64,000 nt of DNA from Mobula birostris (taxonomy: Eukaryota): assembly GCF_030028105.1 (NCBI RefSeq), contig NC_092390.1, positions 42,452,777 to 42,516,776 on the forward strand. Reading direction: 5' to 3'. The notes beneath the pieces are model-generated. The model saw only the letters and a program-made list of their open reading frames with translations. It was not told the DNA's origin and made no database searches. Positions within the stretch are counted from its first letter, which is position 1; every line of letters begins with the position of its first letter. The translations under genes and the position numbers were made by a program. Below are positions 3,545 to 53,990 of this stretch, one piece after another.

Positions 3545-4553
3545 CTCCCTACGCAACTCTCTTGTCCATTCATCCTTCTCTGCTGATCTCCCTCCTGGCA
3601 CTTATCCATGCAAGCGGAACAGGTGCTACATCTGCCCCAACACCTTGTCCCTCACTACTATTCAGGGCCCCAAACAGTACTTCTAGGCGAGGCGACACTT
3701 CACCTCTGAGTCTGTAGGGGACATCTATTGCATCTGGTGCTCCTGGTGTGGCATCTTGTGTATTGGTGAGACCTGACGTAGATTGTGAGACCACTTCGCC
3801 AAGCACCGCTTCTCCATCCACCAGAAAAAGTGGGGTGACCACTTCACATTCCCATTCTGACATGTCCATCCATAGCTTCCTCTGCTGTCACGATGAGGCA
3901 TACTCAGGTTGGAGGAGTAACACCTCATATTCCGTCTTGGTAGCCTCCAACCTAATGGCATGAACATCAACTTCCTGAACTTCCAGTGATGGCCTCCCAC
4001 TTCTCTATTCCCCATCCCCTATCCCTCTCTCACCTTATCCCTTTCCTGCCCTTGTGGCTAAAGGGATCAGGGGTATGGAGGGAAGGCTGGTACAGGGTTC
4101 TGAGTTGGATGATCAGCCATGATCATACTGAATGGCGGTGCAGGCTCAAAGGGCCAAATGGCCTACTCCTGCACCTATTTTCTATGTTTCTATGTTTCTA
4201 TGTTTGCCCATCACCTCATCTGGTGTTCTTCCCTCTTTTTCTTTCTCCCATGGCCTTCTGTCCTCTCCTGTCAAATTCCCCCTTCTCCAGCCCTGTATCT
4301 CTTTCACCAACCAACTTCCCAAGCCTTTGGTTCACCCCTCCTTGTTTCACCCATCACCTTGTGTTTCTTTCTCCCTTCCCCCCACCTTCTAACTCTGACC
4401 CCTCATCCTTTTTTCTGAGTCCTGCTGAAGGGTCTCGGCCCAAAATGTCGACTGTACTCTTTTCCACAGATGCTGCCTGGCCTGCTGAGTTCCTCCAGCA
4501 TTTTGTGTGTGTCGCTTGGATTTCCAGCATCTGCAGATTTTCTCTAGTCCGTG
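3545..4553 (+). mobile_element. Penelope-like element 3' part (GIY-YIG remnant + pseudo-LTR), interrupted by a CR1 tail
   Basis: Homologous to 32226-32860 (YIGET..DHFA, LGSLQPNGMNINF); tail AGATGCTGCCTGGCCTGCTGAGTTCCTCCAGC; degenerate hammerhead at 4418-4453. Confidence 0.85.
4048..4204 (+). mobile_element. CR1 3' terminus nested in Penelope
   Basis: Near-identical to 53694-53848; ends in (CTATGTTT)n. Confidence 0.85.
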
Positions 4554-9833: not shown

Positions 9834-10246
9834 CTCTTCTTTGGCTGTCCATCGATTTTGATGTTGACTATGCTGAGAGTTTAGTCTCTGCAGGCACATT
9901 TATGGGCCACAAGACCAGCATTGGATTGGCACTGTCTCCCACGTCGGTTGCATTTGTGATTTGACTGGTCTAGCACCGAATGTCTGCGTTCATGACCTGC
10001 TTCATATTTCTTCTGCCTTTTCTCCTCGATAGCTGGGATTGACTTCTTGACAATGCAGTGCCAACTTCTTCTGTCCAAAGTCAGTGTTCTTCATATGGTG
10101 CTTGAGCACGTCTTTGTAGAGCAGCTTCTGACCTCCATGCTTCCTCATTCCTTCATGTAGCTGGCCACAGAAACCAGCTAAGCGAGCATCACTCATTCTT
10201 GTGACATGACCAGTCCAACGCAGCTGAGAAGCTGTAATGAGTGATT
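9834..10246 (-). mobile_element. RTE-clade LINE 3' fragment
   Basis: [39 protein letters not shown]-terminal CNRRGRQCQSNAGLVAHKCAC, then a GATGGACAGCCAAAGAAGA tail. Confidence 0.85.
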
Positions 10247-10345
10247 CTCTCATTACTTCTATGACTCTTAATGACCCTCATGTGATTGCTATACCTTCAA
10301 ACAACTCTCAGAGTTTATCAGCTGGAAAACTAACCACCATGGATC

Positions 10346-10388
10346 AGAGCTGAAGAAGCCTCTTGGATGAGGGGGTGAAATGTCTTCT
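10346..10388 (+). ncRNA. Hammerhead ribozyme motif (second Penelope family)
   Basis: AGAG-CTGAAGA-A-GCCTCTT(GGATG)AGGGGGT-GAAA-TGTC-TTCT: stems I and II pair, core present, minimal stem III. Confidence 0.65.
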
Positions 10389-11058
10389 AGACCACACGGT
10401 AAGTCCAGTTGCCTCGATTTACCTCTGCTCAATATAACCTACTAGAAGGGTTCAAGCGCTGATGGATGGCAGATGCTAATGTTGAGTTATGGCAGAAAAA
10501 TAATCTGAATTCCAGATTCATGCTGACCATGATTTATGTGGATCATTGGGCAAAACTTTTATATTCAAGTGCATTGTGTCTTATGCTAGAATTGCTCACA
10601 ACCAAAGCACTTTCTGTGTGTCTCCCAATGATGACATTGGCAATGATTTGAAAATTTTGTGTTTCATTTATTGAGAGGAGACATAAAGACTAACAGAAGA
10701 CAAATAAAGTCTACTAGCAGTTTAAGCAAACACAGTTGATTTTTTATTGGTAGTTAACTGTCACTGGGAATTTATGTGAGAAGATTTGGAATTTATTTCA
10801 GAACAGGTCCCATTCACTTATCCACTTTGAGGCCAAAACCAAACAGTAAAGGCAGTCACTAAGGTCCTCACCATTTGGAATAATGCCAGCTTCAGAAAGA
10901 GGAACAGGAGCCTGAAGACTCACTCAACCATTCAGAAACATCTTCTTCCCCTCTGCCACCAGATTTCTGAACAGTCCATAAATCCATGAATACTAGCAAG
11001 TCACATCAAAGTTGCTGGTGAACACAGCAGGCCAGGTAGCATCTCTAGGAAGAGGTAC

Positions 11059-11094
11059 AGTCGACATTTCGGGCCGAGACCCTTCGTCAGGACT
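11059..11094 (-). ncRNA. Minimal hammerhead ribozyme motif
   Basis: Reverse complement AGTC-CTGACGA-A-GGGTCTCGGCCC-GAAA-TGTC-GACT. Confidence 0.7.
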
Positions 11095-11112
11095 AGTTCG
11101 TCAGGCCTGGTT

Positions 11113-11148
11113 AGTCCTGACGAAGGGTCTCGGCCTGAAACGTCAACT
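11113..11148 (+). ncRNA. Minimal hammerhead ribozyme motif
   Basis: AGTC-CTGACGA-A-GGGTCTCGGCCT-GAAA-CGTC-AACT. Confidence 0.7.
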
Positions 11149-11289
11149 GTACCTCTTCCTAGAGATGCTGCCTGGCCTGCTGCGTTCACCAGCAACTTTG
11201 ATGTGTGTTGCTTGAATTTCCAGCGTCTGCAGAATTCCTCGTGTTTGCATCCATGAATACTAGTTCCTTTTTTGTGAAGATAATTTAAA

Positions 11290-12687: not shown

Positions 12688-13030
12688 AGCACAGTGGAAC
12701 AGCGGCACTGCAGTCAGTGGAGATCCTCACAACTCCAATGATACAGGTTTGATGCTGTCTGTGTGGGGCTTACATGTGACCATGTGATTTCTAACGAGAG
12801 AAGATCTGCAGATGCTGGAAATCCGAGCGACACACACAAAATGCTGGAAGAACTCAGTCGGCCAGGCGGCGTCTATGGGAAGGAGTACCATCAATGTTTT
12901 GGGCTGAAACTTTTCGGCTGGACTCAAGGGAATTGAATCCTGCTGAGTTCTGTGATCCCACATCCCAAAGACTTGCTAATTGTTGAGTAAACTGAACACT
13001 GTAAATGCAGGAGATTGTGGAAAGAGCTGG
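12688..13030 (+). mobile_element. V-SINE-like SINE interrupted by a Penelope end (12793-12925, minus)
   Basis: SINE core GCTGTCTGTGTGGGG..GTGACCATGTGATTTC resumes as CCCACATCCCAAAGAC after the Penelope tail. Confidence 0.7.
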
Positions 13031-18009: not shown

Positions 18010-21000
18010 GCTTTCAAGATGGTGCCTGCCTACATCTTTTCTCGCTTTCCTCTTAAATATACTCCTTTTGAACTACTTCTGTTGCAACCTGCAGCATGCA
18101 AATTTTCTCTCAACATCATACTATGAAATTACATCAATGATCTTCAGATGTCGCATTCAACGGTTAAATGTGGAGTTAAGCACAGCTCCTTTAAGGGTTC
18201 AACACCATTGCCAAAAACACGACAGGAGAGGCGAAATTCAAAACGGGCTGAAATGCAGACAGATGAGGCCTCCTCTACCGAGCATCTTGTTGGCGAATGT
18301 ACAGTCACTTGTACATTCAATGTACAGATCAACTGTTGCTCTGGAACTTGGTTAGATGCGGATACACCAGATGCAGTGATACAACTGGAAGGTTTTACAA
18401 GTTTCAGAATGGATCAAACCTTGAACTCTAGTAAGGAAAAAGGGGGCAGCGTATGCTTTTTAGTCAATTCTCATTGGTGCATGAATGTCAGGGTTATGTC
18501 TACTTCTTGTTTCCCAACTAATGATTAAATGTAGACCATTCTACTTGCCTTGGGAATTCTCATCTGTGATCCTGACTGGAGTTTACATACCATCAGTAGC
18601 TGATTATAAGCAAGCACTAACAAAACTGCACAATGCTGTGTGTAAACAAGAAATGGCCCATCCTGGCGCATTTCAAGTTATAGTTGATGACTTTAACCAG
18701 GTCTGTTTGAAGAAAACCTTGCCCAATTATCACCAGCACGTAACCTGTTGCACCAGGGGTCCCAACACACTAGACCACTGCTACACTATGATAAGGAAAA
18801 CCTATCACATTTTGGCAAGTCAGATCATCTGTTTGTACTACTACCTGCATACAGACAGAGCCAAAAAATCAAGGCTCCAGAGATCAAGACAACTAAGAGG
18901 TGGTCAAGGGAGGCTGAGGAATGGTTACAGGATTGTCTTGATTTAATAGACTGGACTGTGTTCAAGAACTCATCTGAGGACCTGCATGACTACACCTATA
19001 ATGACTTTATTAAATCAGCTGTGGTTGAGTGTGTCCCCATGAAATCATTCAGGGTTTTCCCTAATCAGAAGCCCTGAATGAACAATGGAATCCTGAGTCA
19101 GATCAGAGGCATTCAAATCTGGAGATCAAGAATGCTACAAGAGGTGCAGGCATGATCTGTGGAAAGCCGTCTCTTGGGCAAGGTGGAGATTCCAGACTGA
19201 ACTGGAATCAATGAGGGATGCTTAACAGCTGTGGTACCGTTTGAATGCCATAACCTCCTAAAAATGTTATATCTTATGACATAGGAGACAGCATAACTTC
19301 ACTTCCAGATGAGCTCAATGCTTGCTTTGACCATCAGTACAGGGAGGAACCATTGCGCACCCCCAAGCCTCCTGATGATCTTTTGGTCTCAGTATCTGAA
19401 GGTGATGTGTGGGCTGCCTTCAAGAGTGAATCCAAGGAAAGCATCCGGTCTAGATGGAGTACCTGGCCAAGTATGGAAGACCGGTGCTGACCAGCTGGCT
19501 GGTGTATTCATGGATATGTTCAGCTTCTCGCTCTGGCAGTGTGTGGTACCCACCTGCTTCAAGAAGGCTGCAGTCATACTGGTGCCCAAAAAGAGCATAG
19601 TATCCTGTCTAAATGACTATCGCCCAGTAGCACTTACATACACAGTGATGAAGTAGTTTGAGAGGCTGGCATTGAAGCATATCAGCTCCTGTCTGAATGG
19701 TGACTTGGATCTGCTCCAATTTGCCTATCAAAGCAACAGGTCTACAGCATATGCTATCTCATTGGCTCTTCATACAACCCTGGAACACCTTGAAAACAAA
19801 GACACATGCATCAGGATGTTCTTTAATGATTACAGCTCATCATATAACACCATCATCTCCTCAAAACTAATCAGTAAACTCCAACATCTAGGCCTCAATG
19901 TCCCCTTGTGCAATTGGATCCTGAATTTCCTCACTTGTATACCAAAGTCAGTTCGGATTGGCAAAAACCTCTCCTCCACAATCTCCATCAGCACAGGAGA
20001 TCTGCAGGGATGTGTACTTAGCCCGTGCTCTACTCGTTTTATACCTATGACTGTGTGGCTAAGTACAGCTCCAACATCATATACATGTTTGCTGAGGACA
20101 CCACTGTTGTGGACTGTATCGACGGTGGGGATGATTCAGCATACAGGAGCGAGATTGAAAATTTTGCAGAGTGGTGTAATAACAACAACCTCTCACTCAA
20201 TGTCAATGAGACCAAGGGATTGATAGTAGAACAGGAGAGGGAAACCAGAGGTCCATGAGCCAGTAATCATCAGAGGATCAGAGAGGGTCAGTAACTTTAA
20301 ATTCCTGGTTGCTAATATCTTAGGGAATCTGTCCTCGACTTGTATTAAGTATTGTTGTGAAGAAAGCACAACAGTGCCTCTACTTCCTCAGGTGTCTGCA
20401 AAGGTTTGGCATGTCATCGAAAGCCTGGGCAAACTTCAATAGAAAGTCTGCAGATGCTGTGTGTGTTGCTCAAACTTCTATAGACATGTGGTGGAAAGTG
20501 TGCTGACTGTCTGCATTATGGCCCAGTATGACAACACCAATTCCTTTGAACAGAAAATCCTACAAAAAAATAATGGATTCAGCCCAGTACATCACGGGTA
20601 AAGCCTTCCTGACCATTGAGCACATCTACATGAAATGTTGCCATAGAAAAGCAGCATTCATCATCAAAGACCCTCACCAACCAGGCCATGCAGTTTTCTC
20701 ACTGCTGCCATCAGGTAGAAGGTACAGGTGCCTCAGGGCTCGCACCACCAGGTTCAAGAACAGTTACTGCCCCTCAACCATCGGGCCCTTGAACCAAAGG
20801 GTGATAGCTACACTCATTTCAGGACTCATTTAAAAACTCTTTTATATTGTTATTTCATGGTCATTATTTATTGCTATTTATTTATAGCTGCATTTGCACA
20901 GTTCATTTGCAGTGCCTGATGTTAACAGTTTACAGTTACTGTTCTATAAATTTGCTAAGTATGCCCGCAGAAAAAGAATCTCAGGGTTGTATGTGGTGAC

Positions 21001-28579: not shown

Positions 28580-30575
28580 GGTCATAGAGGCACAGAAAAC
28601 TACAGAACAGAAAAAAGCCCTTCACCACATCTAGTCCATGCCAAACAATTTAAACTGCCTTGTCTAAATGATCTGCACCTGGACCATAGCCCTCCGTACC
28701 CTTTCTATCCATGTACCTATCCAAACTTCCCTTAAACGTTGAAATTGAAGTCGCATTCGCCACTTGCACTAGCAGCTTGTTCCACAATCTCACCACCCTC
28801 TGAATGAAGAGGTTTCTCTTCATGTTCCCTTTAAACATTTCACCTTTCACCCCTAACCCGTGACCTCTAGTTGTAGTCTCTCCCAATCTCAGTGGAAAAA
28901 GCCTGCTGCATTTCATCATCATCATTATGAGCCATGTCGTATGACGTAGGCGATCATGGTCTTTATGATCATGATTGTTCTTGGCAAATCTTTCTACAGA
29001 AGTGTAGAAAATTTTTCTTCTGGGCAATGCCTTTACAATATGGGAGACCCTAGACATTATCAATATTTTTCAGAGATCGTCTGCCTGGTGTAGTTGCATA
29101 ATCTGGATTTGTAATATGCACTAGCTGCTCATATGACCATCTACCACCTGCTCCCATGGCTTCATGTGACTCTGATCGTGGGGCTAAGCAGATGCTATAC
29201 CTTGCCAAAGGGTGACCTGCAGGCTAATGGAGGGAAGGAGCACCAGACATCTCCTTAGGTAGAGAAATATCTCTACCTTGTCACCAAGTGCTTGCATTTA
29301 CCCTATCCATACATAAAATAATTTTGTATACCTCTGTTAAATCTCCCCTTCATCTTCTACATTCTAGGGAATAAAGTTCTAACCTATTCAATCTTTCCTT
29401 ATAGCTCAAGTCCTCCAGTCCCAGCAACATCCTTGTAAATTTTCTCTGTACTCTTTCAATCTTATTTACATCTTCCCAGCTTGTGCGTGGGAGGGGGGAG
29501 GGATCTTTGGGTTTCTGATGTTTCTGTCATTCATCTTTTGTTTTTTTTTCTGTTTCATGGATGTCTGTGAAGAGTAAGAATTTCAGGTTGTATGTTGTAT
29601 ACATTCTCTGATATTAAATGGAACCATTGAACCTGTAGGTAGGTGACCAAAACTGCACACAGTACTCCAAGTTAGGCCTCACCAATGTCTGATAGAACTT
29701 TATCATAACATCCTAACTCCTGTACTCAATACTTTGACCTATGAAGGCTAATGTGCCAAAATCTTTATGACTTTACCTACCTGTGACAGCACTTTCAATG
29801 AATTATGGACCTGCACTTCCAGATGCCTTTGTTCTACTAATACTCAAGTGTGCCCCACCACTCACTGTGTAAGACCTACCCTGGTTGATCCTCTAAAGTG
29901 CAACACCTCACACTTAACTGCATTAAATTCCATCTGCCATTTTTCAGCCCAATTTTCCAGCAGGTCCAGATCCCGCTGCAAACTTTCCTAGTCTTCCTCG
30001 CTGTCCACTACACCCACAAGCTCAAGCTTTGTGTCATCCACAAATTTGCTGATCCAGTTAACCACAATATCATCCAGATCATTGATATAGATGACAAAGA
30101 AGAATGGATGTAGCACCGATCCCTGCAGCACTCCACTAGTCACAGGCCTCCAGTCAGAGAGGCCACCATCTACTACTGCTCTGGCTTCTCCTGCAAAGCC
30201 AATATCTAATCCAGTTTACTACCTCATCTTGAATGCCAAGCATCTGAACCTTCTCGACCAATCTCCCATGCGGAACCTTGTCAAATGACTTGCTGAAGTC
30301 CATGTAGACAACATCCACTGCCATGCCCTCGTCAACTTTCTTGGTAGCTTCCTCGAAAAACTCTATAGAACTAGTTAGACATGACCTACAGCATAAATAG
30401 CCATGCTGACGTTCCCTACTCAGTCCCTCTCTATCCAAATACTCATATATCTGGTCCCTTAGAATACCTTCCAATAACTTTTCGCTACTGATTCCCGGCT
30501 CACCGGCCTATAATTTCCTGGTTTATTCTTAGAGCCTTTTTTAAACAGTGGAAAAACATTAGCTATCTTCCAGTC
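28580..30575 (-). mobile_element. CR1 LINE (RT to 3' end) with two nested insertions
   Basis: DWKIANVFPLFKKGSKNKPGNYRPVS, VDVVYMDFSKSFDKVPHGRL, RGHGLGVKG..FIQRVVRLWN. Confidence 0.9.
28912..29288 (-). mobile_element. Short non-LTR element/SINE with (ATG)n tail nested in CR1
   Basis: (CAT)n on the plus strand; TGCATTT duplicated on both sides; CR1 resumes after it. Confidence 0.6.
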
Positions 30576-31238
30576 TTTCAAGGAAAATTTCATATAGAAG
30601 GCAAAACAACAGAGGAGCACAGTAAAGTGTGTAATTATTGTAGACATACTGCTTATATCGAATGCTATGCATTTGCTTATTGAATGAAAAATAAATATTT
30701 GATTATAGCCTGATTGAGTGAGCGTTCTTCTACCTGCAGCCATTGAAAATATGAATGCTCATGATGTGTCAGGAAATCAGATTCATTACCAAAGGATTTT
30801 TATTCTATGTACCTTCACAAACACTGCACTATTAAAAGCTCACCAGATTAACAGGGAATGGTCCACTTATGAAACTCACAAATAGGACATCTGCTGTAAA
30901 TTCAAAGATGCAAGACTCCATTTCCTCACTGTCAGAATAAGAAAAGTAATAAGATTATATTGTGGGTTAAAACAGAGATAGTGAAGTACATTATCAGAGC
31001 CTTTGAGTAACACTTTATTATTCTGAGCAGGGGGTAGGGCTACACTACTACAGCAACAAGCAATGTTATATCTGTATGCTCTTTACAGCAAAACTTGAAG
31101 ACAACTTAAGGAAAGAGGGAGCCAAGAGATGAAATTAAGCAAACACGAGGAAATCTGCAGATGCTGGAATTTCAAGCAACACACATAAAAGTTGCTGGTG
31201 AACACAGCAGGCCAGGCAGTATCTCTAGGAAGAGGTAC

Positions 31239-31274
31239 GGCCGACGTTTCGGGCCGAGGCCCTTCGTCAGGACT
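31239..31274 (-). ncRNA. Minimal hammerhead ribozyme motif
   Basis: Reverse complement AGTC-CTGACGA-A-GGGCCTCGGCCC-GAAA-CGTC-GGCC. Confidence 0.7.
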
Positions 31275-32763
31275 AACTGAAAGAAGAGCTAGTAAGAGAT
31301 TTGAAAGTGGGAGGGGGAGGGGAAGATCCAAAATGATAGGAGAAGACAGGAGGGGGAGGGATGGAGCCAAGAGCTGGACAGTTGATTGGCAAAAGGGATA
31401 TGAGATGAACATGGGACGGGAGGCCTAGGGAGAAAGAAGAGGGGGGGGGAAACCCAGAGGATGGGCAAGGGGTATAGTGAGGGGGACAGAGGGAGAAAAA
31501 GGAGAGAGAGAAAACAAATGTGTGTACATAAATAAAGAATGGATGGGGTACGAGGGGGAGATGGGGCATTAACCAAAGTTTGAGAAGTCAATGTTCATGC
31601 CATCAGGTTGGAGGCTACCCAGACGGAATATAAGGTGTTGTTCCTCCAACCTGAGTGTGGCTTCATCTTGACAGTAGAGGAGGCCGTGGATAGACATGTC
31701 AGAATGGGAATGGGATGTGGAATTAAAATGTGTGGCCACTGGGGGATCCTGCTTTCTCTGGCAGACAGAGCGTAGGTGTTCAGTGAAACGATCTCCCAGT
31801 CTGCGTCAGGTCTCGCTAATATATAGAAGGCCACATCGGGAGCACCAGATGCAGTATATCACCCCAGCCGACTCACAGGTGAAGTGTCGCCTCACCTAGA
31901 AGGACTGTCTGGGGCCCTGAATGGTGGTGCGGGAGGAAGCGTAAGGGCATGTGTAGCACTTGTTCCGCTTATCAGGATAAGTACCAGGAGGGAGATCAGT
32001 GGGGAGGGGTGGGGTGGACAAAAGGACAAGGGAGTCGCGTAGGGAGCGATCCCTGCGGAAAGCAGAGGTGGGGGAGGGAAAGATGTGATTAGTGGTGGGA
32101 TCCCGTTGGAGGTGGCGGAAGTTACGGAGAATTATATGTTGGACCTGGAGGCTGGTGGGGTGGTAGGTGAGGACAAGGGGAACCCTATTCCTAGTGGGGT
32201 GGCGGGAGGATGGAGTGAGAGCAGATATATTGGCGAGACCCGACACAGACTGGGAGATCATTTCGCTGAACACCTACGCTCTGTCAGCCAGAGAAAGCAG
32301 GATCTCCCAGTGGCCACACATTTTAATTCCACATCCCATTCCCATTCTGATATGTCCATCCACGGCCTCCTCTACTGTAAAGATGAAGCCACACTCCGGT
32401 TGGAGGAACAAAACCTTATATTCCGTCTGGGTAGCCTCCAACCTGATGGCAAGAAAATTGACTTCTCAAACTTTTCTGCTAACCCCCACCTCCCCCTCGT
32501 ACCCCATCCGTTATTTACTTATATACGCACATTCTTTTTCTCTCTCTCCTTTTTCTCCTTCTGTCCCTCTGACTATACCCCTGGGCTTCCCCCCCCTTTT
32601 TCCTTCTCCCTAGGCCTCCTGTCCCATGATCCTCTCATATCCCTTTTGCCAATCACCTGTCCAGCTCTTGGCTCCATCCCTCCCCCTCCTGTCTTCTCCT
32701 ATCATTTCTGATCTCCCCCTCCCACTCCCACTTTCAAATCTCTTACTATCTCTTCTTTCAGTT

Positions 32764-32799
32764 AGTCCTGACGAAGGGTCTCGGCCCGAAACGTCGACT
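32764..32799 (+). ncRNA. Minimal type I hammerhead ribozyme (intact consensus)
   Basis: AGTC-CTGACGA-A-GGGTCTCGGCCC-GAAA-CGTC-GACT: stem I AGTC/GACT, stem II GGG/CCC, palindromic ACGT in place of stem III, GTC cleavage triplet. Confidence 0.8.
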
Positions 32800-33569
32800 G
32801 TACCTCTTCCCAGAGATGCTGCCTGGCCTGCTGCATTCACCAGCAACTTTTATGTGTGTTAGATGAAATTAAGCACATGCTTTTAACAGTTGATATTATA
32901 ATTGATATTGTATCCTGAACTGTAAATCAAACTTCTAGTTCAATATCAGCCTATGATATCAACCAAGCGGGTTTCAGGACTTCTATAAAGCCATTTCAAT
33001 TCCCTTTTAAGAGATGCATGAGTTGAACTCGAATTGAGCAATTGACAACCACAGACCAATAATGACTAGAGTGGGAATTCCGTTTGCTTTCACGTGAAAG
33101 GTGACCAGATCATCTAGCCATGAGACTGTGAAAGCATTAAAAATTAAGTGGCTTGTAGTTCAGTGATGCAGCTACCTTGTGGCCGTTTACTCACTGATGA
33201 AGAAAATCCCTTAGCAAACTGGTGGAAGTCTCTGCCATTCAGGATCTAAGTTGCAAATAGATTTTCCAGACGAGTTAAATGGCTGAATGTTGAGAGGTCC
33301 CTTGCTGAATGAGATTATAGATTTTCCAAGGGTTTCTGGTTTAGTCTGGGAGTCAGTGCACCATGGTGAAGAACATATGTGAAATTGGTTAACGTTTTCC
33401 ATATAGTTTGGATCTGAGGAACTATAAATAGCTTTCCCCAGCTATCTCTATTTGCCTGATTTCATTACTGCTTTAGTTCCTTGTTATTAAAGCAGAGGTA
33501 TGATGAAACACCTAATTGTCAAATGGGTGTGCAGCAGGGAGGCACTGTGCTTCAGTACTGCGCCAATAG

Positions 33570-34040
33570 CCAACATACTGGTCTATTGATTCAGAAACAT
33601 GACTTTGAAAACCCACCATGGGAGCAGGGGAATTTAAATTCAGGCAATTAAATAAATCAAGGATTAAAAAGTCTGGCCTCAGTAGTAGAGACCATGAAAA
33701 TACCGGATTGTAAAAACCATTAAATTCATTACTATCTTCCAGGATATTCCTTTCAATTTTTCGTTGATCTCATTCTGGTTATTATTCTATTTTGGATTTA
33801 TTGAGTATGTCCACAAAAAATGAGTTTCAGGTTTGTATATGGTGACATATAGATACTTTGATAATGAATTTACTTTGAACTTAGGAAAGAGCGTGTTCCT
33901 CTTTACTTATTTGGGCTGTGTGCAGCTCTAGACAGAGCAATCTGCTACACTCTTAAGAGTCCTCTGAACTGACTTTGTAAGCCATTCAGTTGAGGGGCCA
34001 ACTGGGTACAGACAATAATCCCACTGCAGTCCACATTCTT
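33570..34040 (+). mobile_element. Old elasmobranch-type SINE interrupted by a Rex1 tail (~33745-33880)
   Basis: CCCACCATGG..GGAATTTAAATTCA..GACCATGAAA..GTAAAAACC..AAGCCATTCAGTT core. Confidence 0.6.
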
Positions 34041-35659
34041 TAGATGAGGACATTAAACCTATTTACCTACTGTAAAATGCCGAGACATTAATTAGGCCGG
34101 GCAGCACCTGCGGGATGAGAGACAGAAAACATGTAATTTACAATTTTAGTTCAGCATCTGCAGCTTTTTTGATGCTCTTAGTTTCTTACAAGTTTAGCTT
34201 CACTTGGGGAGTGCTATGGTTTGCTGTTGCCAAAGAAAGGATAATCAAGTATATTGACAGCTCAGTCCTCTTTCCAATGGAAGCAAACCTGGTGGATATT
34301 AATTTGAATTGAGGAGGTGACACCAGCCTCACCTTCTAACATGAAACATGATCATTGTTGGATGGGGAACAGAGTATGAGTTCCCAGGTGGCAGGTAGGA
34401 TTGGTGCTTGTCTCATATTAGACACCAGTGATCTGGATGACGTAGCTAAATGCAACATCTCAAGTTTGCAGATATCACAAAGATACGAGTGTGCTGAATG
34501 GTAGCATAGGCTCAAGGGCTGAATGGTCTCCTATTTTCTATGTTTATGTGCAACGTCAGAGGCAATCATCCAAAGACGCTTGATGTGGTCAGCCTCAACA
34601 TGAATGACTGTGAAGTATCTTCCCTCCTGTTGCTTGCATCATGTGTCACCACCCATTGAAACTGATGCAAATAGAACAATAGCTTATACGTGTAAAGTTA
34701 CATGGACATCTGCTTGTGTAAATTTTCCTGAAATTAGAAATGGGTTACTTCAACAGCAAAATATATGTGCTGGCTTTGTATGCTGCTCTCGTGATGAGTC
34801 AGTACCCTCTGGCTATTTATAATGTTTTAATTTTCAAGGACATACAAGCCTACTGTTATCCACAAAGTGTTCCCTTGTTTTCAAAGTAGGCCTGTACAGC
34901 TTCTTTGGTGAGGATATTCCATCAGCAATGTAGTACAAACACCTAGGTAAAGTTCAAGCTAACAGAGTTAATAAATCTAATCATTTCCAGGACGGATGTA
35001 TGACCAGAAGGGGTACACGTTATTGTGAATCAGTAGTTGTCCTGAGAAGGTGGAGAATGTTTTCTGCGTGACTCTCGTCAGTCCACTCTGTGCTGTCAGT
35101 TAGGGTGGTCCAAGAATTTCATCCAGCCAGAATCTGAGGAAGCTTATGTACAGTGCCTGTTGCAAATGGGTAGTGGCATGTTGAATAGTTACATCTTTCT
35201 TTCCACATTTACAGAGGTGTCCAAAGCTATTGGTAATGCTCTGAGCTTCTGCCAATGCAACCACTAATGTCCATTTCTAAAGACCAATAGTTAGAGAGAA
35301 GACGGATTCATGTTTAGGTTGTCCTGTGTAAAGAGAAAGCATTGTACCCAGGGGTGTAGAGGATAAGCAACGGAACACATTCCCACTTAGGCTCCAGTGT
35401 GAATGCTGAGGACTCTGATCAGGCATTACTTGCTGAATTGCACCAAATTGGGAAAAAAATGTTATCTGGGTCCAGATGTAGAGATTTTCCACAAGGATTG
35501 GCAGTCAAAAGCCTAGTCAAATAATCATAAGGAAATTGGTTTGTTGGGAAGGCGAGTATGGTAATCAATGTGGGGTTATCTGGACGTTAGAAGTAGGCAT
35601 TGAACATATCTTATATTGTCCTGGTTGGTCAGTATTGTGAAAAAAACCTGTAAGTGACC

Positions 35660-36572
35660 AAGTGTACTAGCCCCTCCTTTACTCTCTGTAGACCCATGAC
35701 TGTGTTGCCACCCACAATTCCAATCTGCTAACTAAATTTGCCGACGACACTGCACTGATTGGTCTAATCTCAAATAATAATGAAGCAGTTTACAAAGAAG
35801 TCACCACCCTGACACAATGGTGTCAAGGAAAGAACCTCTCCCTCAATGTCACAAAAACAAAGGAGCTGGTTGTGGATTACAGGAGGAATGGAGACGGGCT
35901 AACCCTTATTGACATCAATGGATCTGGGGTTGAGGGGGTAAACAGCTTCAAGTTCCTCGGCATCGTCATCACCGAGGACCTCACGTGATCTGTACACTTG
36001 TGGTGAAAAAGGCACAACTGCGCATCTTTCGCCTCAGATGGTTGAAGAAGTTTGGTGTGGGCCCCCAAATCCTAAGAACTTTCTACAGGGGCACAATTGA
36101 GAGCATCCTGACTGGCTGCATCACTGCCTGGAATGGTAACTGTACCTCCCTTAATCGCAGGACTCTGCAGAGAGTGGTGCGGACAGCTCAGCACATCACA
36201 TCAGTAGTTGCGAACTTCCCACTATTCAGGACATTTACAAAGACAGGTGTGTAAAAAGGGCCCGCAGGATCATTGGGGACTCAAATGACCCTAACCACAA
36301 ACTGTTCCAGCTGCTACCATCTGGGATATGGTACCGTAGCATAAAAGCCAGGACCAACAGGCTCCGGGACAGCTTCTTCCACCAGGCCATCAGACTGATT
36401 AATTCATGCTGACACAACTGTATTTCTATGTTATATTGACTATCCCATTGTATATACTATTTATTATAAATTACTATAAATTGCACATTGCATACTTAAA
36501 CAGAGACATAACATAAATATTTTTACTCCTCATGTATATGAAGGATGCGAGTAATAAAGTCAATTCAATTCA
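35660..36572 (+). mobile_element. 5'-truncated Rex1/Babar LINE
   Basis: KFADDTALIGLI, FKFLGIVITEDL, FYRGTIESILTGCITAW; tail AATAAAGTCAATTCAATTCAA. Confidence 0.9.
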
Positions 36573-37782
36573 ATAGCCACTGTCTGGGCAATGTGTGCTG
36601 ATCTCTCGTGTTGCATGGGGGATGACATAATTTGAGACTCATTTGATATTGAAGTTGCAATGAGCAATCTAAACAATGCTTGGTCAAATTTCCACAGTGA
36701 CACTCCGGAAACTGTCAGTACTACATGATTGGATTTCTAGGCCAATGTGTTTTCCCCACTACAGTAGGAAAGTGCTGGTGCATTAGAGCACGTTGGGAAG
36801 ATTATATTACATCCCTGCTTCCCAGCTGCAGACTACATCTCTGTAAAATAAAATTCTGTTTCAATTAACAATATTTTGTGGACAGGAAAATAAAGCAGCA
36901 ATTGCTAGCAACTGTCTTACTCCTTTGCTGAATCCTCAGTTTGAAGCTGCCAGTAATGCTTTGGGCAGGCTGCCCAGTGCAAAAGTGCTTAATGCCAGTG
37001 GATTATTAATTCAGAGTGAAAGATGCTAGTGTATGAAGGTTAATATGTTAATTAGCACTCATCTATTCTTGCACAAACCTGTTGCCTTGTGTGAGGCAAC
37101 GAGTATAAATGACGGGGCAGGAGATATAGGTGACAATCAGGGGTGGAACCCTTTTATGATTTTACAAATATGCATTTCCTCAGCCCTTTCATGGATAGAT
37201 TCAGCCAACACTGGAGAATGGAATAATAAGAGGATTAGACAGCCAGGTTTTCTGTAGAATTGGTGCAATCAATGAAGCTTTCCCTGCAAGAAAAGAGAGG
37301 TTAAGATCATTCCTGTTGTAACATTAAACTCCCTGCCACCTTTGATTTTTTGCATAATTTTCAACCTGGTAATCTGCATTTAGCATTTTTTCAAGTACTC
37401 TTCTTTGTGTTGCTTTTAGCTTAGAAACTGGATCGATGACAAAAAATACACTGTGAAGATTTCATTGTGAGAAAGGAAAGAGGCTTGTTTAACACTAAGA
37501 TCATGTCTAAGACAAGAGAATTGAATTCTTTTCCAGTAATAAATATGCTCTTCACTGGAACTCTGTCATAGCTGCTCTCTCTTTTGCACACAAGTAGAAA
37601 TTGACAGAGATATGTTGATTCTGTTTTATAAAAAGAAAGCCTGGAAGCTAGACTTGTGAACAACGCCACAATCTCTGCTGTGAATTAAGCAAAATGAGAA
37701 TCTTTCTTAAGAATTTAAAATAAAACAAGGAGACATGATCAAGGAAGAGTGATAAATCTTTAAACAGATACTGCATTGGTCA

Positions 37783-40021
37783 AGCAACACACACAAAATG
37801 CTGGTGGAATGCAGCAGGCCAAGCAGCATCTATAGGAAGAAGTACAGTCGATGTTTCGGGTTGAGGCCCTTCGTCAGGACTAACGGAAAAAAGAGATAGT
37901 AAAAGATTTGAAAGTGGGAGGGAGAGGGGAAGTCCCAAAATGATTCATCAGGACTAATGGAAAAAAGAGATAGTAAGAGATTTGAAAGAGAGAGGGGGAG
38001 GAAGAGACCCGAAATGATAGGAGAAGACAGGAGGGGAAGGGTTGCCAATCTACTTCCCAGCTCTTGGCTCCATCCCTCCTCCTCCTTTGAACAGGTACTT
38101 TGAATCTGTCTTCACTAGGGAAGACACAAACAATCTCCCAGATGTAATAGTGGCCAAAGGACCTAGGGTAATGGATGAACTGAAGGAAATTTATATTAGG
38201 CAGGAAATGGTGTTGGATAGACTGTTGGGTCTGAAGGCTGATAAGTCCCTGGGACCTGATGGTCTGCATCCCAGGGTACTTAAGGAGGTGGCTTTAGAAA
38301 AAGTGGATGCATTGGTAATCATCTTCCAATGTTCTATAGATTCAGGATCAGTTCCTGTGGATTGGAGGGTGGCTAATGTTGTCCCTCTCTTCAAGAAGGG
38401 AGGAAGAGGGAAAACAGGGAATTATAGACCGGTTAACCTGACGTCGGTGGTGGGAAAGATGCTGGAGTCAATTATAAAAGATGAAATTACAACACATCTG
38501 GATAGCAGTAACAGGATCGGTCCGAGTCAGCATGGATTTATGAAGGGGAAATTGTGCTTGACTAATCTTCTGGAATTTTTTGAGGATATAACTATGAAAA
38601 TGGACAAGGGAGAGCCAGTGGATGTAGTGTACCTGGACTTTCAGGAAGCCTTTGATAAAGTCCCACATAAGAGATTAGTGGGCAAAATTAGGGCACATGG
38701 TATTGGGGGCAGAGTACTGACGTGGATTGAAAATTGGCTGGCTGACAGAAAACAAAGAGTAGCGATTAATGGGTCCCTTTCGGAATGGCAGGCGGTGACC
38801 AGTGGGGTACCGCAGGGTTCAGCGCTGGGACCGCAGCTGTTTACAATGTATATTAATGATTTAGATGAGGGAATTAGAAGTAACATTAGCAAATTTGCCA
38901 ATGACACAAAGTTGTGTGGCAGTGTGAAATGTGAGGAGGATGTTATGAGAATGCAGGGTGACTTGGACAGGCTGGGTGAGTGGGCAGATGCAGTTTAATG
39001 TGGATAAATGTGAAGTTATCCACTTTGATGGTAAGAACAGGAAGGCAGATTATTATCTAAATGGAGTCAAGTTAGGAAAAAGGAAAGTACAACGAGATCT
39101 AGATGTTCTTGTACATCAGTCACTGAAAGCAAGTATGCAAGTTAAACAGGCAGTGAAGAAAGCTAATGGCATGCTGGCCTTCATAACAAGGGGGATTGAG
39201 CATAAGAGCAAAGAGGTCCTTCTGCAGCTATACAGGGCCCTGGTGAGACCACATCTGGAGTATTGTCTGCAGTTTTGGTCTCCAAATTTGAGGAAGGACG
39301 TTCTTGCTATTAAGGGAGTGCAGCATAGGTCCACAGGGTTAATTCCCGGGATGGTGGGACTGTCATATGTCGAAAGATTGGAGCGACTGGGCTTGTATAC
39401 TCTGGAATTTAGAAGGCTGAGAGGGGATCTTACTGAAACATATAAGATTATTAAGGGATTGGACACGCTGGAGGCAGGAAGCATGTTCCCGCTGATGGGT
39501 GAGTCCAGGACCAGAGGCCACAGTTTAAAAATAAGGGGTAGGCCATTTAGAACAGAGCTGAGGAAAAACTTTTTCACCCAGAGAATGGTGGATATATGGA
39601 ATGCTCTGTCCCAACAGGCTGTGGAGGCCAAGTCTCTGGATGTTTTCAAGAAAGAGATGGATAGAGCTCTTAAAGATAGCGGAATCAAAGGTTATGGGGA
39701 CAAGGCAGGAACTGGATACTGATTGTGGATGATCAGCTATGATCACAGTGAATGGCGGTGCTGGCTTGAAGGGCCAAATGGCCTACTCTTGCACCTATTG
39801 TCTATTGTCTATTGTCCTGTCTTCTCCTAGCATTTCGGGTCTCCTCTTCCCCCTCCCGCTTTCAAATCTCTTACTATCTCCTTTTTCCGTTAGTCCTGAT
39901 GAAGGGTCTCGACGCGAAATGTCGACTGTACTTCCTCCTATAGATGCTGCCTGGCCTCCTGCATTCCACCAGCATTTTGTGTGTGTTGCTTGGATTTCCG
40001 GCATCTGCAGATTTCCTCGTG
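37783..40021. mobile_element. Inverted Penelope pseudo-LTR pair with nested CR1, TSD-flanked
   Basis: ACTGCATTGGTCA (37770-37782) and ACTGCATTGGCCA (40022-40034); hammerhead motifs at 37846-37881(-) and 39892-39927(+). Confidence 0.85.
38088..39814 (+). mobile_element. Young 5'-truncated CR1 (HER1-like) LINE, RT pseudogene
   Basis: ORFs 38042-38998 and 38958-39722: GPDGLHPRVLKE, GNYRPVNLTS, LDFQEAFDKVPH, SGVPQGSALGP, KFANDTK, RPHLEYC; one frameshift; (CTATTGT)n tail. Confidence 0.95.
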
Positions 40022-42357: not shown

Positions 42358-43255
42358 CAACAAACAGGAGAGAATCTGCAGATGCTGAGAGTTCGAGCAA
42401 CACACACAAAATGCTGGAGGAACTCAGCAGGCCAGCAGCATGTAGGAAAAGAGTACAGTCGACGTTTCAGGATGAAACCCTTCGGCAGGACTGGAGAAAA
42501 AATGCTGAGGAGTAGAATTAAAAGGTGGGGGGGGGGTGGGAAGAGGGAAACACAAGGTGGGAGGTGAAACCTGAAGGGGGAGGGCTGAAGTAAAGAGCTG
42601 GGAAGTAAATTGGTGAAAGAGACAGAAGGCCACGGAAGAAAGAAAAGGGGGGAGGAGCACCAGAGGGAGGCAATGGACAGGCAGGGAGATAAGGTGAGGG
42701 AGGGAAAAGGGGATGCGAAATGGTGAAGGAGAGTGGGGTGGAGGGCATTACTGGAAGTTTGAGAAATCGATGTTCATGCCATCAGGTTGGAGGCTACCCA
42801 AATGGAATATAAGGTGTTGTTCCTCCAACCTGAGTGTGGCCTCATCATGACAGTGGAGGAGGCCGCGGATGGACATATCAGAATGGGAATGGGAAGTGGA
42901 ATTACAATGGGAGGCCACTGGGAGATGTCACTTTTTCTGGCGGATGGAGCACAGGTGCTCAGCGAAGCAGTCTCTCAATCTACGCTGGGTCTCACCAATA
43001 TACAGGAGGCCACACCGGGAGCACCGGACACAGAATATGACCCCAACAGACTCACAGGTGAAGTGGCGCCACACCTGGAGGAACTGTTTGGGACCTGAAT
43101 GGTAGTGAAGGAGGAGGTGTAGGGGCAGGTGTAGCACTTGTTCTGCTTTCAAGGATAAGTGCCAGGAGGGAGATTAGTGGGGAGGGATGAAAGGACAAGG
43201 GAATCATGTAGGGAGCGATCCCTGTGGAAAACAGAAAGTGGGAGGGAGGGAAAGG
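42358..43255 (-). mobile_element. Penelope-like element 3' part
   Basis: FTCESVGVIFCVRCSRCGLLYIGETQRRLRDCFAEHL (GIY-YIG); pseudo-LTR with variant hammerhead at 42457-42492. Confidence 0.9.
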
Positions 43256-47829: not shown

Positions 47830-49260
47830 CCGTGGCAGACCTGCACTTAATATCTTGAGTTAAGTAGCACTACACCACACAATCAGAGTGCCTATAGTCC
47901 AATTCCTGAAAGTCTCCAACTGTTTACGGACTAAACAGGTAACCAATGCATTGTTCAGGAGAATAGAGTCATCACATAACGCATCATCAAGGAACTGAAG
48001 GACAGGGCTCCAGGGTCCAAAGGTCACCTCAAGTCTGAACTGTTCAGCAATAGCACATTGCAGTGAACTTTGAACTTTGTGGAGGTACATTAAACATTAT
48101 ATCTCCACTGATTTTCTTCCTTTGACAATAAACAGTTTGTGAATTGGTGTTCTGTTAATGACATCTCAGGTGTGATGATCATGAACCAAAAAGCAGAAAT
48201 GCAAGTGTGAAGATGAAGGAATCCACCTTTTGAAAAGTTATCAACCACACAGAGAGCCTAACATTCTGTGCCAGTATAATGATTGCTTGATCTAGATAAA
48301 CCAGTAGACCAGAAATTTCACCCAAGCCTGCGTAACACCGCCTTTCAATACATAAATATGTGACTGAGACTATTCCTCTCTCTTTAGGACCCATCTTGGA
48401 AACTAACTTGTCCGACAGGAGTGGAACAGGTGTTTGTCTACAGTGCTCAAGACCAATGCCCACTTTTCAAAAAGAGATTGATATCGGTATCAAAGTTTTA
48501 CCAGGGTACATAAACAGCTACACATTATTGGGTTGCTAATGTCCTTATTGGGTGATCCAAATGCCACTCTGGTACTACCTCGGCTTGCGACTGTAATTGG
48601 GCGGAGGAGTCCATTACGGCTTAGACAAGAGTTCATGAGCTGTTTGACACTGCAGCCTCCTGCAGCTTGTGTCTGAAGGGACTCACAAGAACATTGCAGC
48701 AGCTTAGAATCTAGTGAAGCTGTATCACCCAAATTTCTCTCTAAGTATGCTGCCCAATTAACTGACCACACCAAACATCTTCTGCCTTCATGTTTGATAT
48801 TGCATCCCCTGAACTGAAATGTCATACTCCCAGTCTGGGATAGACAGCTGTATGGATTTGTGAGACAATAGGTTCCAGAGGAGTCAAAATGCTGTTTGCA
48901 CTCTTGTTAGCAATCTGCACAGAGGAAAGACTTGAATCCAGAGCCCAGTGTAGTGTATACAAGAACCACGATCTGTGGCATCAGAGGAGACAACTTATTA
49001 CAGAATCTATCAAGGTAACAAGCCCTTCAGGATAGATCCACTGTCACTTCCTTGTGAGGAAATCTTCTTATTGAGCTCTACCATGCCACCTGGTGCACTG
49101 GAAAAATTTCCTGGCCTATAATTCAACCACTTGCACAATTACCAGACCACTGAAACAATCTCCAGTTAAATATTGAACCCCTAATTCAGTCTCTCAGTAG
49201 AGCTGGAAGATGAACAGGCCTTCCAGTTAGCAATCCTGTGGCCTTCTTTATGACCTTCAC
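47830..49260 (-). mobile_element. Ancient DIRS/Ngaro-like tyrosine-recombinase retrotransposon remnant (RT C-terminus, RNase H, YR)
   Basis: Ordered degenerate motifs across frameshifts: VQYLTG..VV..ARKFF, EVTVDLS*..YLDRF, VSSDATDRG, YVP(G)K..(A)D.IS, TPVP, QAWVKFLVYW, CISAFWF. Confidence 0.55.
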
Positions 49261-49824
49261 TTTCTTCAGCTCACCACCGCTCACAAATTTCTCAGTAAAA
49301 TTGTCCACTACGACATTTGTGAGAGGTGGTGAGCTGAAGAAGGCTGTACAGATGTTACTATGGTCTCCAATGACATTGCTGTATTTCTGATTCAAGTACT
49401 TTACCCTTAATTATGAAACCTGATTTATTTTCCAATTTCTGTGTGTTCATATTAATATCTGATCGGATGTGAGAATTGTGTGGCAGTCCTCCTTTTCAAT
49501 GGTGTAACAATGTGAGACCAGTTTAGTCAGTTGTTATCACTGCAACAGTTGTTACTTACCACAGTCTTATCAGTTTAGAACAGGCAAGTGTTACATTTGC
49601 CCAAAAAGAATCATATTTTCAAAATTTGCACAGCTATGAGAGTCATGACTTTGAATGAGCCACAAGGAGATCACAGCTGCAGACGTTAAAGGTCTTAATT
49701 CAGCACAACAAGCAGACTTAGAGGGGAGCAAAGTATAGGCAGCTGGAAGAACTCAACAGGTCAGGCAGCAGCTGTGAGTGAAAATGGTTGTCAAATTTAC
49801 AACGCGAGACCCTTCACCTGTATT

Positions 49825-51702: not shown

Positions 51703-51836
51703 CGCAAACAACAGGAATTCTGCAGATGCTGGAAATTCAAGCAACACACATCAAAGTTTCTGGTGAACGCAGCAGGCCAGGCAGCATCTGTAGGAAGAGG
51801 TGCAGTCGACGTTTCAGGCCGAGACCCTTCGTCAGG
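51703..51836 (-). mobile_element. Penelope pseudo-LTR end inserted in an older Penelope fold-back (51535-51700)
   Basis: Same family as the 11-kb element; truncated just past the hammerhead core (reverse complement CTGACGAAGGGTCTCGGCCTGAAACGTCGACT). Confidence 0.85.
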
Positions 51837-51959
51837 GTCCTCTTTTCTCTTTTCCTCTTTTCCATTTATATACATTAATTTAAAGCTGAGCCATCAGCAA
51901 ATTGTTCCTACTCTGAGCTTTTCCATGAATATTTGGATATTCGTTTGGTGCTAATTTGT

Positions 51960-53990
51960 GCCATCAGAAAAGGAGCTTGATTGCCAGGTTCGTGAACTGT
52001 TATTACCCCTCTGCCAGCAGGTCCTTGAACCGATGGGGATAACCTCCCTCAACTTCACTTGCCCCATCACTGAACTGTTACCACAACCAATGGACTCATT
52101 TTCAAGGACTCTTCATCTCCTGTTCTCGATATTTATTGCTTACTTATTTATTATTACTTCTTTTTTTCCTTTGTATTTACACAGCTTGTTCTCTTTTGCA
52201 CACTAGGGAAATACATGTTAGTAGGGAAGTGGTGTTAGGTAAATTGAAGGGATTGAAGGCAGATAAATCCCCCGGGCCAGATGGTCTGCATCCTAGAGTG
52301 CTTAAGGAAGTAGCCCAAGAAATAGAGGATGCATTAGTGATAATTTTTCAAAACTCTTTAGATTCTGGACTAGTTCCTGAGGATTGGAGGGTGGCTAATG
52401 TAACCCCGCTTTTTAAAAAAGGAGGGAGAGAGAAACCGGGGAATTACAGACTGGTAAGCCCGACATCGGTGGTGGGGAAAATGCTGGAGTCAGTTGTGAT
52501 GTGATAACAGCACATTTGGAAAGTGGTGAAATCACTGGACAAAGTCAGCATGGATTTGTGAAAGGAAAATCATGTCTGACGAATCTCATAGAATTTTTTG
52601 AGAAAGTAACTAGTAGAGTGGATAGGGGAGAATCAGTGGATGTGGTATATTTGGATTTTCAAAAGACTTTTGACAAGGTCCCACACAGGAGATTAGTGTG
52701 CAAACTTAAAGCACACGGTATTGGGGGTAAGGTATTGATGTGGATAGAGAATTGGTTGGCAGACAGGAAGCAAATAGTGGGAATAAACGGGACCTTTTCA
52801 GAATGGCAGGCAGTGACTAGTGGGGTACCGCAAGGCTCAGTGCTGGGACCCCAGTTGTTTACAATATCTATTAATGATTTAGAAGAGGGAATTAAATGCA
52901 GCATCTCCAAGTTTGCGAATGACACGATGCTGGGCGGCAGTGTTAGCTGTGAGGAGGATGCTAAGAGGATGCAGGGTGACTTGGATAGCTTAGGTGAGTG
53001 GGCAAGTTCATAGCAGATGCAATTTAATGTGGATAAATGTGAGGTTATCCACTTTGGTGGCAAAAACAGGAAAACAGATTATTATTTGAATCGTGGCCGA
53101 TTAGGAAAAGGGGAGGTGCAATGAGACCTGGGTGTCATTATACACCAGTCATTGAAAGTGGGCATGCAGGTACAGCAGGCGGTGAAAAAGGCAAATGGTA
53201 TGCTGGCATTCATAGCAAGAGGATTCGAGTCCAGGAGCAGGGAGGTACTACTGCAGTTGTACAAGGCCTTAGTGAGATCACTCCTCGAATATTGTGAGCA
53301 GTTTTGGTCCCCTAATCTGAGGAAAGATATTCTTGCCATAGAGGGAGTACAAAGAAGGTTCACCAGATTGATTCCTGGGATGGCAGGACTTTCATATGAT
53401 GAAAGACTGGATCGGCTAGGCTTATACTCGTTGGAATTTAGAAGATTGAGGGGGGATCTTATTGAAACATATAAAATCCTAAAGGGATTGGACAGGCTGC
53501 ATGCAGGACGATTGTTCCTGATGTTGGGGAGGTCCAGAACGAGGGGTCACAGTTTGAGGATAAAGGGACGCTTTTTAGGACCGAGATTAGAAAAAAGTTC
53601 TTCACACAGAGAGTGGTGAATCTGTGGAATTCTCTGCCTCAGGAAACAGTTGAGGCCAGTTCATTGGCTATATTTAAGAGGGAGTTAGATATGGCCCTTG
53701 TGGCTAAAGGGATCAGGGGGTATAGAGAGAAGGCAGGTACAGGGTTCTGAGTTGGATGATCAGCCATGATCGTACTGAATGGTGGTGCAGGCTTGAAGGG
53801 CTGAATGGCCTACTCCTGCACCTATTTTCTATGTTCCTATGTTTCTATCTGCCTGATTGAGTGTTTTTTTTTCATTGAGTCTATAATGGTTATTGGATTT
53901 ATTGAGTATGCCTACAAGAAAATGAATCAGGGTTGTAGATGGTGAGATATATATATATACTCTGATAAAAAAGTTACTTTGAACTTTGAA
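51960..53990 (+). mobile_element. Rex1 3' end split by a CR1 insertion
   Basis: Rex1 UTR 51960-52202 resumes at ~53850 and ends CTCTGATAAAAAAGTTACTTTGAACTTTGAA. Confidence 0.75.
52203..53848 (+). mobile_element. Young 5'-truncated CR1 LINE, RT pseudogene
   Basis: KSPGPDGLHPRVLKE, LDFQKTFDKVPH, SGVPQGSVLGP, KFANDT, EFRRLRGDLIETYKIL; several stops; (CTATGTTT)n tail. Confidence 0.95.

Follow-up and report, generated by a model that had tools for sequence, protein, structure and literature searches.

An intact minimal hammerhead motif in the inverted arm of a Penelope-like insertion of the ray Mobula birostris

Minimal hammerheads of Penelope-like elements and the motif at 32764

Minimal type I hammerheads in the pseudo-LTRs (pLTRs) of metazoan Penelope-like elements (PLEs) were described in 2014 by Cervera and De la Pena (PMC4209133), and Lunse et al. 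are also cited for them (via PMC6765202). The motif studied here lies in a 64,000-nucleotide stretch of Mobula birostris DNA (NC_092390.1, positions 42,452,777 to 42,516,776), hereafter called the window; it is real, correctly named and of this already known kind. It shares with the published minimal hammerheads the core boxes, the unpaired base between positions 9 and 10.1, the G10.1-C11.1 pair and the palindromic 15.2-16.2, as well as the lack of helix III, the pLTR site, the occurrence mostly as single truncated copies and the opposite-strand pairs (PMC4209133). In contrast to the motifs of that paper, helix II is short (3-5 bp), and the copy number seems one to two orders of magnitude above those of the coelacanth (about 4,000) and Xenopus (about 9,000), which are counts of descriptor hits (PMC4209133). 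Cartilaginous fish are unmentioned in the main text of the same paper; its supplements may list them.

The carrier resembles the EN+ PLEs of the Neptune and Nematis type in the CX2-5CxxC linker before GIY-YIG, in the CxxC between GIY and YIG, and in the inverted 5'-truncated copy with a tail at one end and a target-site duplication (PMC8557442); the PLE tail is reported to be 30-40 bp long (PMC8557442, PMC11167929). Unlike those elements, the two ray insertions with clear ends lie in unique sequence with 15-bp duplications and not in (TA)n (PMC8557442). Penelope of Drosophila virilis has a pLTR intron whose 3' end lies at the 5' end of helix I, which is also the arrangement predicted for the ray (PMC2377424, PMC4209133). 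Its 75-bp intron was found by RT-PCR, whereas that of the ray, of about 283 nt and with a donor overlapping the ORF stop, is predicted from gene models. Anolis Poseidon PAc is likewise a vertebrate PLE with a tail and a hammerhead and with no RNA ends seen at its cut site; it is of the Poseidon type and was assayed in vitro, whereas the ray motif is known from sequence alone (PMC11167929). Finally, Penelope repeats of lizards are heavily A-to-I edited (PMC5625713), a role as editing substrate that the ray repeats may share.

By direct reading of the letters, positions 32764 to 32799 of the + strand hold a complete minimal type I hammerhead of 36 bases, and both its sequence and the GUC ending at 32795 read exactly as a preliminary description of the window had given them. 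In the usual position numbering of hammerheads, the core boxes C3U4G5A6N7G8A9, G12A13A14A15.1 and U16.1H17 are all present. Helix I has type I topology, with four Watson-Crick pairs and one G-U pair, and in helix II the pair G10.1-C11.1 (G32776-C32787) follows A32775, which is unpaired after A9. Helix III is missing, and the palindromic 15.2-16.2 falls in ACGU at 32791-94. Within the pLTR, the motif is placed 285 nt past the end of the GIY-YIG frame and about 60 nt before the tail.

A structure descriptor comprising both helices and a palindromic helix III stub found four motifs in the window (10350+, 32768+, 31270- and 11090-), against a mean of 0.015 across 200 dinucleotide shuffles, by which a chance motif is ruled out. 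Only the 32764 motif combined a perfect ACGU palindrome with four Watson-Crick pairs in helix I (shuffle mean 0.005). The other half of the descriptor and Infernal check that had been proposed was negative: the Rfam search gave no hammerhead family at E<=1, and its eight matches were all miRNA or snoRNA models below gathering scores. Such a result would be expected, since the motif is without helix III.

The carrying insertion and related copies in the window

The two inverted arms that surround the motif belong to one insertion, since an identical 15-bp duplication is found on both flanks (Table 1). Arm A carries the end of the RT thumb, the Cys linker, GIY-YIG, the pLTR and the tail, and is truncated before the RT core. 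Arm B consists of the end of the GIY-YIG domain, a pyrimidine-rich region, the hammerhead and 61 nt downstream of it. The arms differ by 48 mismatches in 634 aligned columns. This anatomy of pLTR, inverted 5'-truncated copy, one-sided tail and target-site duplication was encountered in two insertions; of the seven insertions tried for a duplication, five yielded none of more than 7 bp.

That the hammerhead is carried by a Penelope pLTR, as the preliminary description had stated, is borne out by the protein remnants, the homologues and the layout, and the kind is a known one (PMC4209133). The protein remnant of arm A is 86% identical to P0001 over 108 aa. P0001 shows the RT motif YIDD, a CX4CxxC linker and a CxxC between GIY and YIG, and matches PF01541 with an E value of 4.6e-4, below the curated cut-off; in the window copy the CxxC of the linker is kept and its first Cys is lost. 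Six PLE fragments of the window gave no direct Pfam match. Twelve homologues were found, and the 11 that are named all come from Mobula or Hypanus rays. Judged from these sequences, the element would be an EN+ PLE of the Neptune/Nematis type and Neptune-like, since a CX4CxxC linker means Neptune or Nematis by the definition of PMC8557442.

Six ray RefSeq models that bear host-gene names (P0005, P0007, P0013, P0014, P0015 and P0018) are partly or almost wholly made of the element's ORF or pLTR. For host exons in the window itself, 109 crude AG..GT candidates gave four weak matches below the cut-off, none of them credible. A 20-base pattern from the downstream module returned 27 metagenome loci and one viral locus, none of which is an element copy, because blastn matched only 23-27 bases, in three of the 28.

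Table 1. Features of the 31142-32860 insertion and of related copies, in window positions
Feature	Position	Strand	Remarks
Left 15-bp target-site duplication	31127..31141	+
Arm A: main body of 5'-truncated Penelope-like insertion	31142..32225	-	ORF broken
36-nt tail, arm A only	31142..31177	-
Second hammerhead of same insertion	31239..31274	-	damage in helix I; would pair antisense to the 32764 motif in read-through RNA
Arm B: inverted, 5'-truncated, tail-less element 3' end	32225..32860	+	blastn and arm alignment
GIY-YIG endonuclease C-terminal remnant, arm B	32226..32480	+	begins at YIG; 89% identical to P0001, 83 aa
Putative 5' splice donor position, at ORF stop	32476..32484	+	GT lost in arm B, kept in 42457 and 4418 copies
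Putative 3' splice acceptor	32742..32761	+	branch-like CTTAC, pyrimidine tract, CAG; ends 2 nt before helix I
Minimal type I hammerhead, intact	32764..32799	+	predicted cleavage after C32795
Helix I, 5' strand	32764..32767	+
CUGACGA	32768..32774	+
Unpaired A	32775	+
Helix II	32776..32787	+
GAAA	32788..32791	+
CG-UC	32792..32795	+
Helix I, 3' strand	32796..32799	+
Right 15-bp target-site duplication	32861..32875	+	identical to left
Related motif	4418..4453	+	core broken (A6, G12)
Miniature insertion	10982..11263	.	tail-less arm on -, tailed arm on +; 15-bp target-site duplication (10982-96, 11249-63)
Related motif	37846..37881	-	palindrome broken
Related motif	39892..39927	+	damage in helix II and palindrome; closest copy on the same strand, at 7.1 kb
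Related motif	42457..42492	-	A6 changed; end of ~900-bp copy
Related motif	51804..51839	-	copy truncated inside helix I
Older, heavily decayed copies	12889..12924; also 7983 (+), 8437 (+), 51031 (-), 47775 (-), 49789 (-)	-

An ungapped scan (at most 14 mismatches in 36) recovered 12 of the 13 sites that had been listed earlier, whereas 20 mononucleotide shuffles gave 0-1 matches each; the missing site, 7983, aligns via its downstream module. Thus the claim of about a dozen related motifs stands as to their number, although 12 of the 13 are damaged and only the 32764 motif is fully intact. Nine of the 13 are within five mismatches of the 32764 motif. Two listed positions shift slightly (8445 to 8437 and 12890 to 12889), and the decayed copies at 47775- and 49789- are additional. 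RNAalifold on the nine close copies gave a covariation term of 0 for the hammerhead, and none for a downstream hairpin either.

The arms of the miniature insertion both start at the 5' edge of the hammerhead and contain the motifs listed at 11059(-) and 11113(+). At their junction (11095-11110) there is a short extra copy of the first nine bases of the core together with a small palindrome, which suggests template switching at the hammerhead 5' edge. Fold-back priming at helix I was considered for this insertion and rejected, because the whole motif is present in both arms.

Several other repeats share the window. A second Penelope-like family (9520-9995 on the - strand and 10242-10435 on the + strand) has inverted arms, separated by an unrelated LINE-like fragment, and carries a minimal hammerhead of its own, with the same core and other helices, including a longer helix II (core at 10350+); this copy and a more decayed one near 9640- are both damaged. 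The region 37765-38086 (-) is a partial tandem, in which the upstream unit breaks off within the core of the hammerhead and the following one sets in again 63 bases ahead of helix I, with a short inverted piece at the 5' end. An almost perfect 80-nt hairpin at 49259-49344, matched by several miRNA models below thresholds, is probably a small inverted repeat element. LINE RT remnants (RVT_1) and an integrase remnant lie at 38021-39722, 52043-53750, 19297-20833, 35692-36412 and 500-1300, and about 29% of the window's sequence recurs elsewhere in it.

A putative pLTR intron ending at the ribozyme

The AG at 32760-61 is preceded by about 95 nt that are AG-free and pyrimidine-rich, and a crude score places it in the top 0.5% of 8,797 AGs; a second AG is formed by the first two bases of helix I (32764-65). 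The branch-like and donor sites were judged by the general consensus for such sites. A search with the peptide encoded in the hammerhead frame returned three of four candidates, all of them ray RefSeq models. P0013 has host sequence joined to the hammerhead-frame peptide exactly at the point predicted for a phase-1 splice that uses the first AG, in P0014 the join lies no more than one codon from the predicted acceptor, and P0015 starts inside the hammerhead motif. An exhaustive peptide search gave P0014, P0013 and the chance repeat protein P0017, and no candidate was obtained with the second reading frame of the hammerhead as query. At the other end, P0007 and P0018, isoforms of one Hypanus locus, are identical to the last residues of the ORF and then diverge, and the putative donor was therefore placed at the stop codon.

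This evidence comprises four predicted gene models from three loci, seen as proteins only, in a region that is pyrimidine-rich anyway, and donor and acceptor are each used separately in ray gene models. On balance it speaks slightly in favour of a pLTR intron of about 283 nt that these sites would bound, from the ORF stop to the 5' edge of the ribozyme. Such introns have been suggested for other PLEs (PMC8557442); no literature on a ray pLTR intron was found among titles and the openings of abstracts, with subscription papers outside the scope.

Decay, folding and possible activity of the dispersed copies

Variation among copies was assessed from contigs of four runs: X1 is a DNA run, X5 comes from a second organism (organism B), and X17 and X18 were taken as RNA-type runs by guess (X18 'probably DNA'); the contig depths are unstranded and biased towards consensus words. 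On the repeat lie 55,595 contigs of X1, with a summed depth of 7.7 million over the motif against 5.66 in the unique flank, a depth that is not a copy number. Overlapping contigs may inflate the count up to 31-fold, and there are therefore at least about 4x10^4 copies. Nine close copies per 64 kb, scaled to the 2.4 Gb of X1 contigs, extrapolate to about 3x10^5. The copy number is thus roughly of the order of 10^5, and the earlier statement that the genome holds a very large number of these motifs is upheld.

Copies across the genome lose the motif mostly via CpG transitions. The motif has five CpGs in its 36 bases, in a window that is itself depleted of CpG (observed/expected 0.27). In X1, changed bases make up 10.2% of depth at G12, 11.0% at C15.2, 12.7% at G16.2, 8.9% at C17 and 10.9% at G1.1, compared with 9.5% and 12.6% at the dispensable CpG of loop II, and the X5 figures agree within a point. 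G8 (32773) is not among the variants listed (40 of 60) and may be less variable than the remaining CpGs. Counted over the nine window copies, 13 of 90 cells at CpG positions of the motif differ, against 11 of 230 at its other positions (p=0.008). The preliminary description had proposed to compare the conservation of the core with that of its flanks across copies. At CpG sites the core (9-13%) is no more conserved than loop II (9.5-12.6%), which is the outcome that the description had named as speaking against it; among the window copies the core is somewhat less changed than the rest, both at CpG (5/45 against 15/63 in the rest; p=0.13) and at non-CpG positions (2/81 against 35/517; p=0.21), neither of which is significant. 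At C11.1 (32787), T makes up 45-50% of the depth in each of the four runs, much more than the change seen at the remaining CpG sites, and a large subfamily accordingly has a G-U pair closing helix II.

In the RNA-type runs, G12 variants amount to 6.5% and 5.9% and loop variants to 2.8-9.0%. Variants that kill the ribozyme are not enriched there, and their drop relative to DNA is about that of the loop variants; this comparison is weak evidence, since the contigs are unstranded. Neither of these two runs covers the unique flank, and no RNA entry was listed for 30000-34500; both facts have no bearing either way. The same runs contain 9 and 11 A>G places, against 1 and 2 in DNA. At six A>G sites among those listed, the changed fraction is 5.5-11.2% in X18 and 0.2-2.2% in X1, which stem from the same sample. 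An excess of A>G is the signature of ADAR editing, and duplex RNA subject to A-to-I editing would be expected to show this pattern; alternatively, it could stem from a small number of loci with high expression. An opposite-strand joint from 32765 to 32807, at the 5' edge of the hammerhead, turned up in both RNA-type runs as a single contig each (depth 1673 and 1049) and did not appear in the two DNA runs; its source is either an inverted locus with high expression or an artefact of fold-back.

In the predicted minimum-energy fold of a 1.8-kb read-through RNA, 35 of the 36 bases of the hammerhead are paired to 31239-31274; the opposite strand and the miniature insertion are predicted to behave alike. 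The monomer is predicted to form an inactive rod in which G5-A6-C7-G8 pairs with C15.2-G16.2-U16.1-C17; the probabilities of these core pairs are 0.985-0.997 in the bare 36-mer and fall to about 0.5 when the flanks are longer. For the active double hammerhead the computed energy is -11.9 kcal/mol, whereas two monomers reach -23.8 and an inactive duplex -32.1. A nearest-neighbour model, whose energies ignore the tertiary core, tertiary contacts and proteins, thus places the active dimer about 12 kcal/mol higher than two monomers. These predictions would agree with the low activity published for PLE hammerheads. Minimal ones showed no activity as monomers and low cleavage as dimers in vitro (PMC4209133), the anole hammerhead was active only with the element's protein and had no RNA-seq ends at the cut site (PMC11167929), and one of nine dimers of Xenopus retrozymes cleaved strongly (preprint 10.64898/2026.07.22.740005).

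We consider it highly probable that the 32764 motif is the pLTR hammerhead of a Neptune-like Penelope element, situated in the inverted arm of one dead, 5'-truncated insertion, likely silent and intact by chance. A single insertion event left two back-to-back 3' ends, each with a hammerhead, on opposite strands. Read-through of the + strand would make the antisense arm first, and the hammerhead is predicted to end in a duplex of about 630 bp; alone, it would form the rod that pairs its core GACG with CGUC. Selection would keep the ribozyme only in active elements, with a tandem partner and probably the element's protein, while dispersed copies would decay neutrally. Their likelier effects on the host would be double-stranded RNA edited by ADAR and cryptic splice sites. 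Sequestration by an antisense arm is at odds, as a general rule, with the many copies that have no inverted partner.

The preliminary description had proposed that intact dispersed copies could cut host pre-mRNA if two motifs pair through ACGU. The partner would be a second motif on the same strand, and cutting would possibly occur only with the element's protein present. The density of copies, nine close ones in 64 kb, favours this idea, as does the share of depth free of the five damaging CpG changes (57% if these are independent), from which many intact motifs probably exist. The low dimer cleavage in vitro (PMC4209133) points in the same direction, and so does the switching on of the anole motif by its element's protein (PMC11167929), which leaves cutting a small probability; Xenopus tandem retrozymes are, moreover, depleted from introns (preprint 10.64898/2026.07.22.740005). 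Copies with a dead core (4418, 39892) can still offer an intact GUC-GACU substrate strand. Nevertheless, the 32764 copy is predicted to be sequestered or folded into a rod, with the active dimer disfavoured, its CpG sites decay genome-wide as the loop does, the window holds no intact partner on the same strand and no identified host exon that would place the motif in a pre-mRNA, and dead variants are not enriched in the RNA-type runs. The loose contig ends among those listed pile up at 32764-66 in four runs and not at the cut site, although contigs cannot show RNA ends. Silence of the 32764 copy is most likely and cutting of host RNA unlikely; as a general account of dispersed copies, we hold the proposal to be very unlikely. 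The pile-up also favours the idea that a non-autonomous unit of SINE-like or retrozyme-like kind, starting at the hammerhead and mobilised independently, accounts for the short copies. Five of the 11 hammerhead-bearing arms begin -3 to +9 bases from helix I (8446, 11095, 11110, 12924, 51836), and animal retrozymes have been reported as derivatives of PLE pLTRs (preprint). Yet the 32764 copy has 540 bases of upstream element and an ORF remnant, two of the five arms belong to one insertion, two others are old subfamilies whose upstream part has perhaps diverged, and the short copies have the tail and inversion of ordinary truncated PLEs. We therefore find such a unit highly improbable, and the starts near helix I may reflect a truncation hot spot, a transcript start or the divergence of older subfamilies. 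A retrozyme array was rejected, given motifs on opposite strands, an ORF remnant and no tandem array of motif-bearing units in the window, and so were 5' ends defined by cleavage, since none of the 11 arms begins at the cut site.

Even less credence, indeed almost none, is given to a domesticated ribozyme kept intact by host selection. The motif is the sole fully intact one of 13, and the second organism probably has the same insertion, as an X5 contig (32831-33300) reaches 30 bases into the element, one fewer than the rule for a bridging contig asks. However, judged from the divergence of the arms, a copy this old would remain intact under neutrality with a probability of about 0.25, so that at least one intact copy among nine has a probability of 0.93 and at most one a probability of 0.30, and one intact in nine is unremarkable. 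Elsewhere arm B has decayed like arm A, and no host exon was found in the window. A bolder reading, which we deem unlikely, would make the ray pLTR a splice-and-cut module in about 10^5 copies: the acceptor at the ribozyme edge would draw copies into host mRNAs as exons and free the hammerhead from its antisense arm, and the protein would activate it. If so, the cutting of host transcripts would be confined to cells in which the retrotransposon is expressed, and pairing into duplexes, together with editing, would neutralise inverted copies.

As a textbook feature of PLEs, the motif itself matters little. The parts worth following up are the editing signal and the possible intron. The tolerance of about 10^5 ribozyme motifs in a vertebrate genome may be explained by the five CpGs of the 36-base motif, by its self-inhibiting rod fold and by the antisense arms built into the insertions. 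Like inverted Alus, the Penelope ends of rays may serve as substrates for editing and as cryptic exons. Should the intron prove real, the link of a pLTR intron to helix I would hold from flies to a vertebrate element of the Neptune type, and the role of the PLE hammerhead would become testable via its spliced and unspliced forms.
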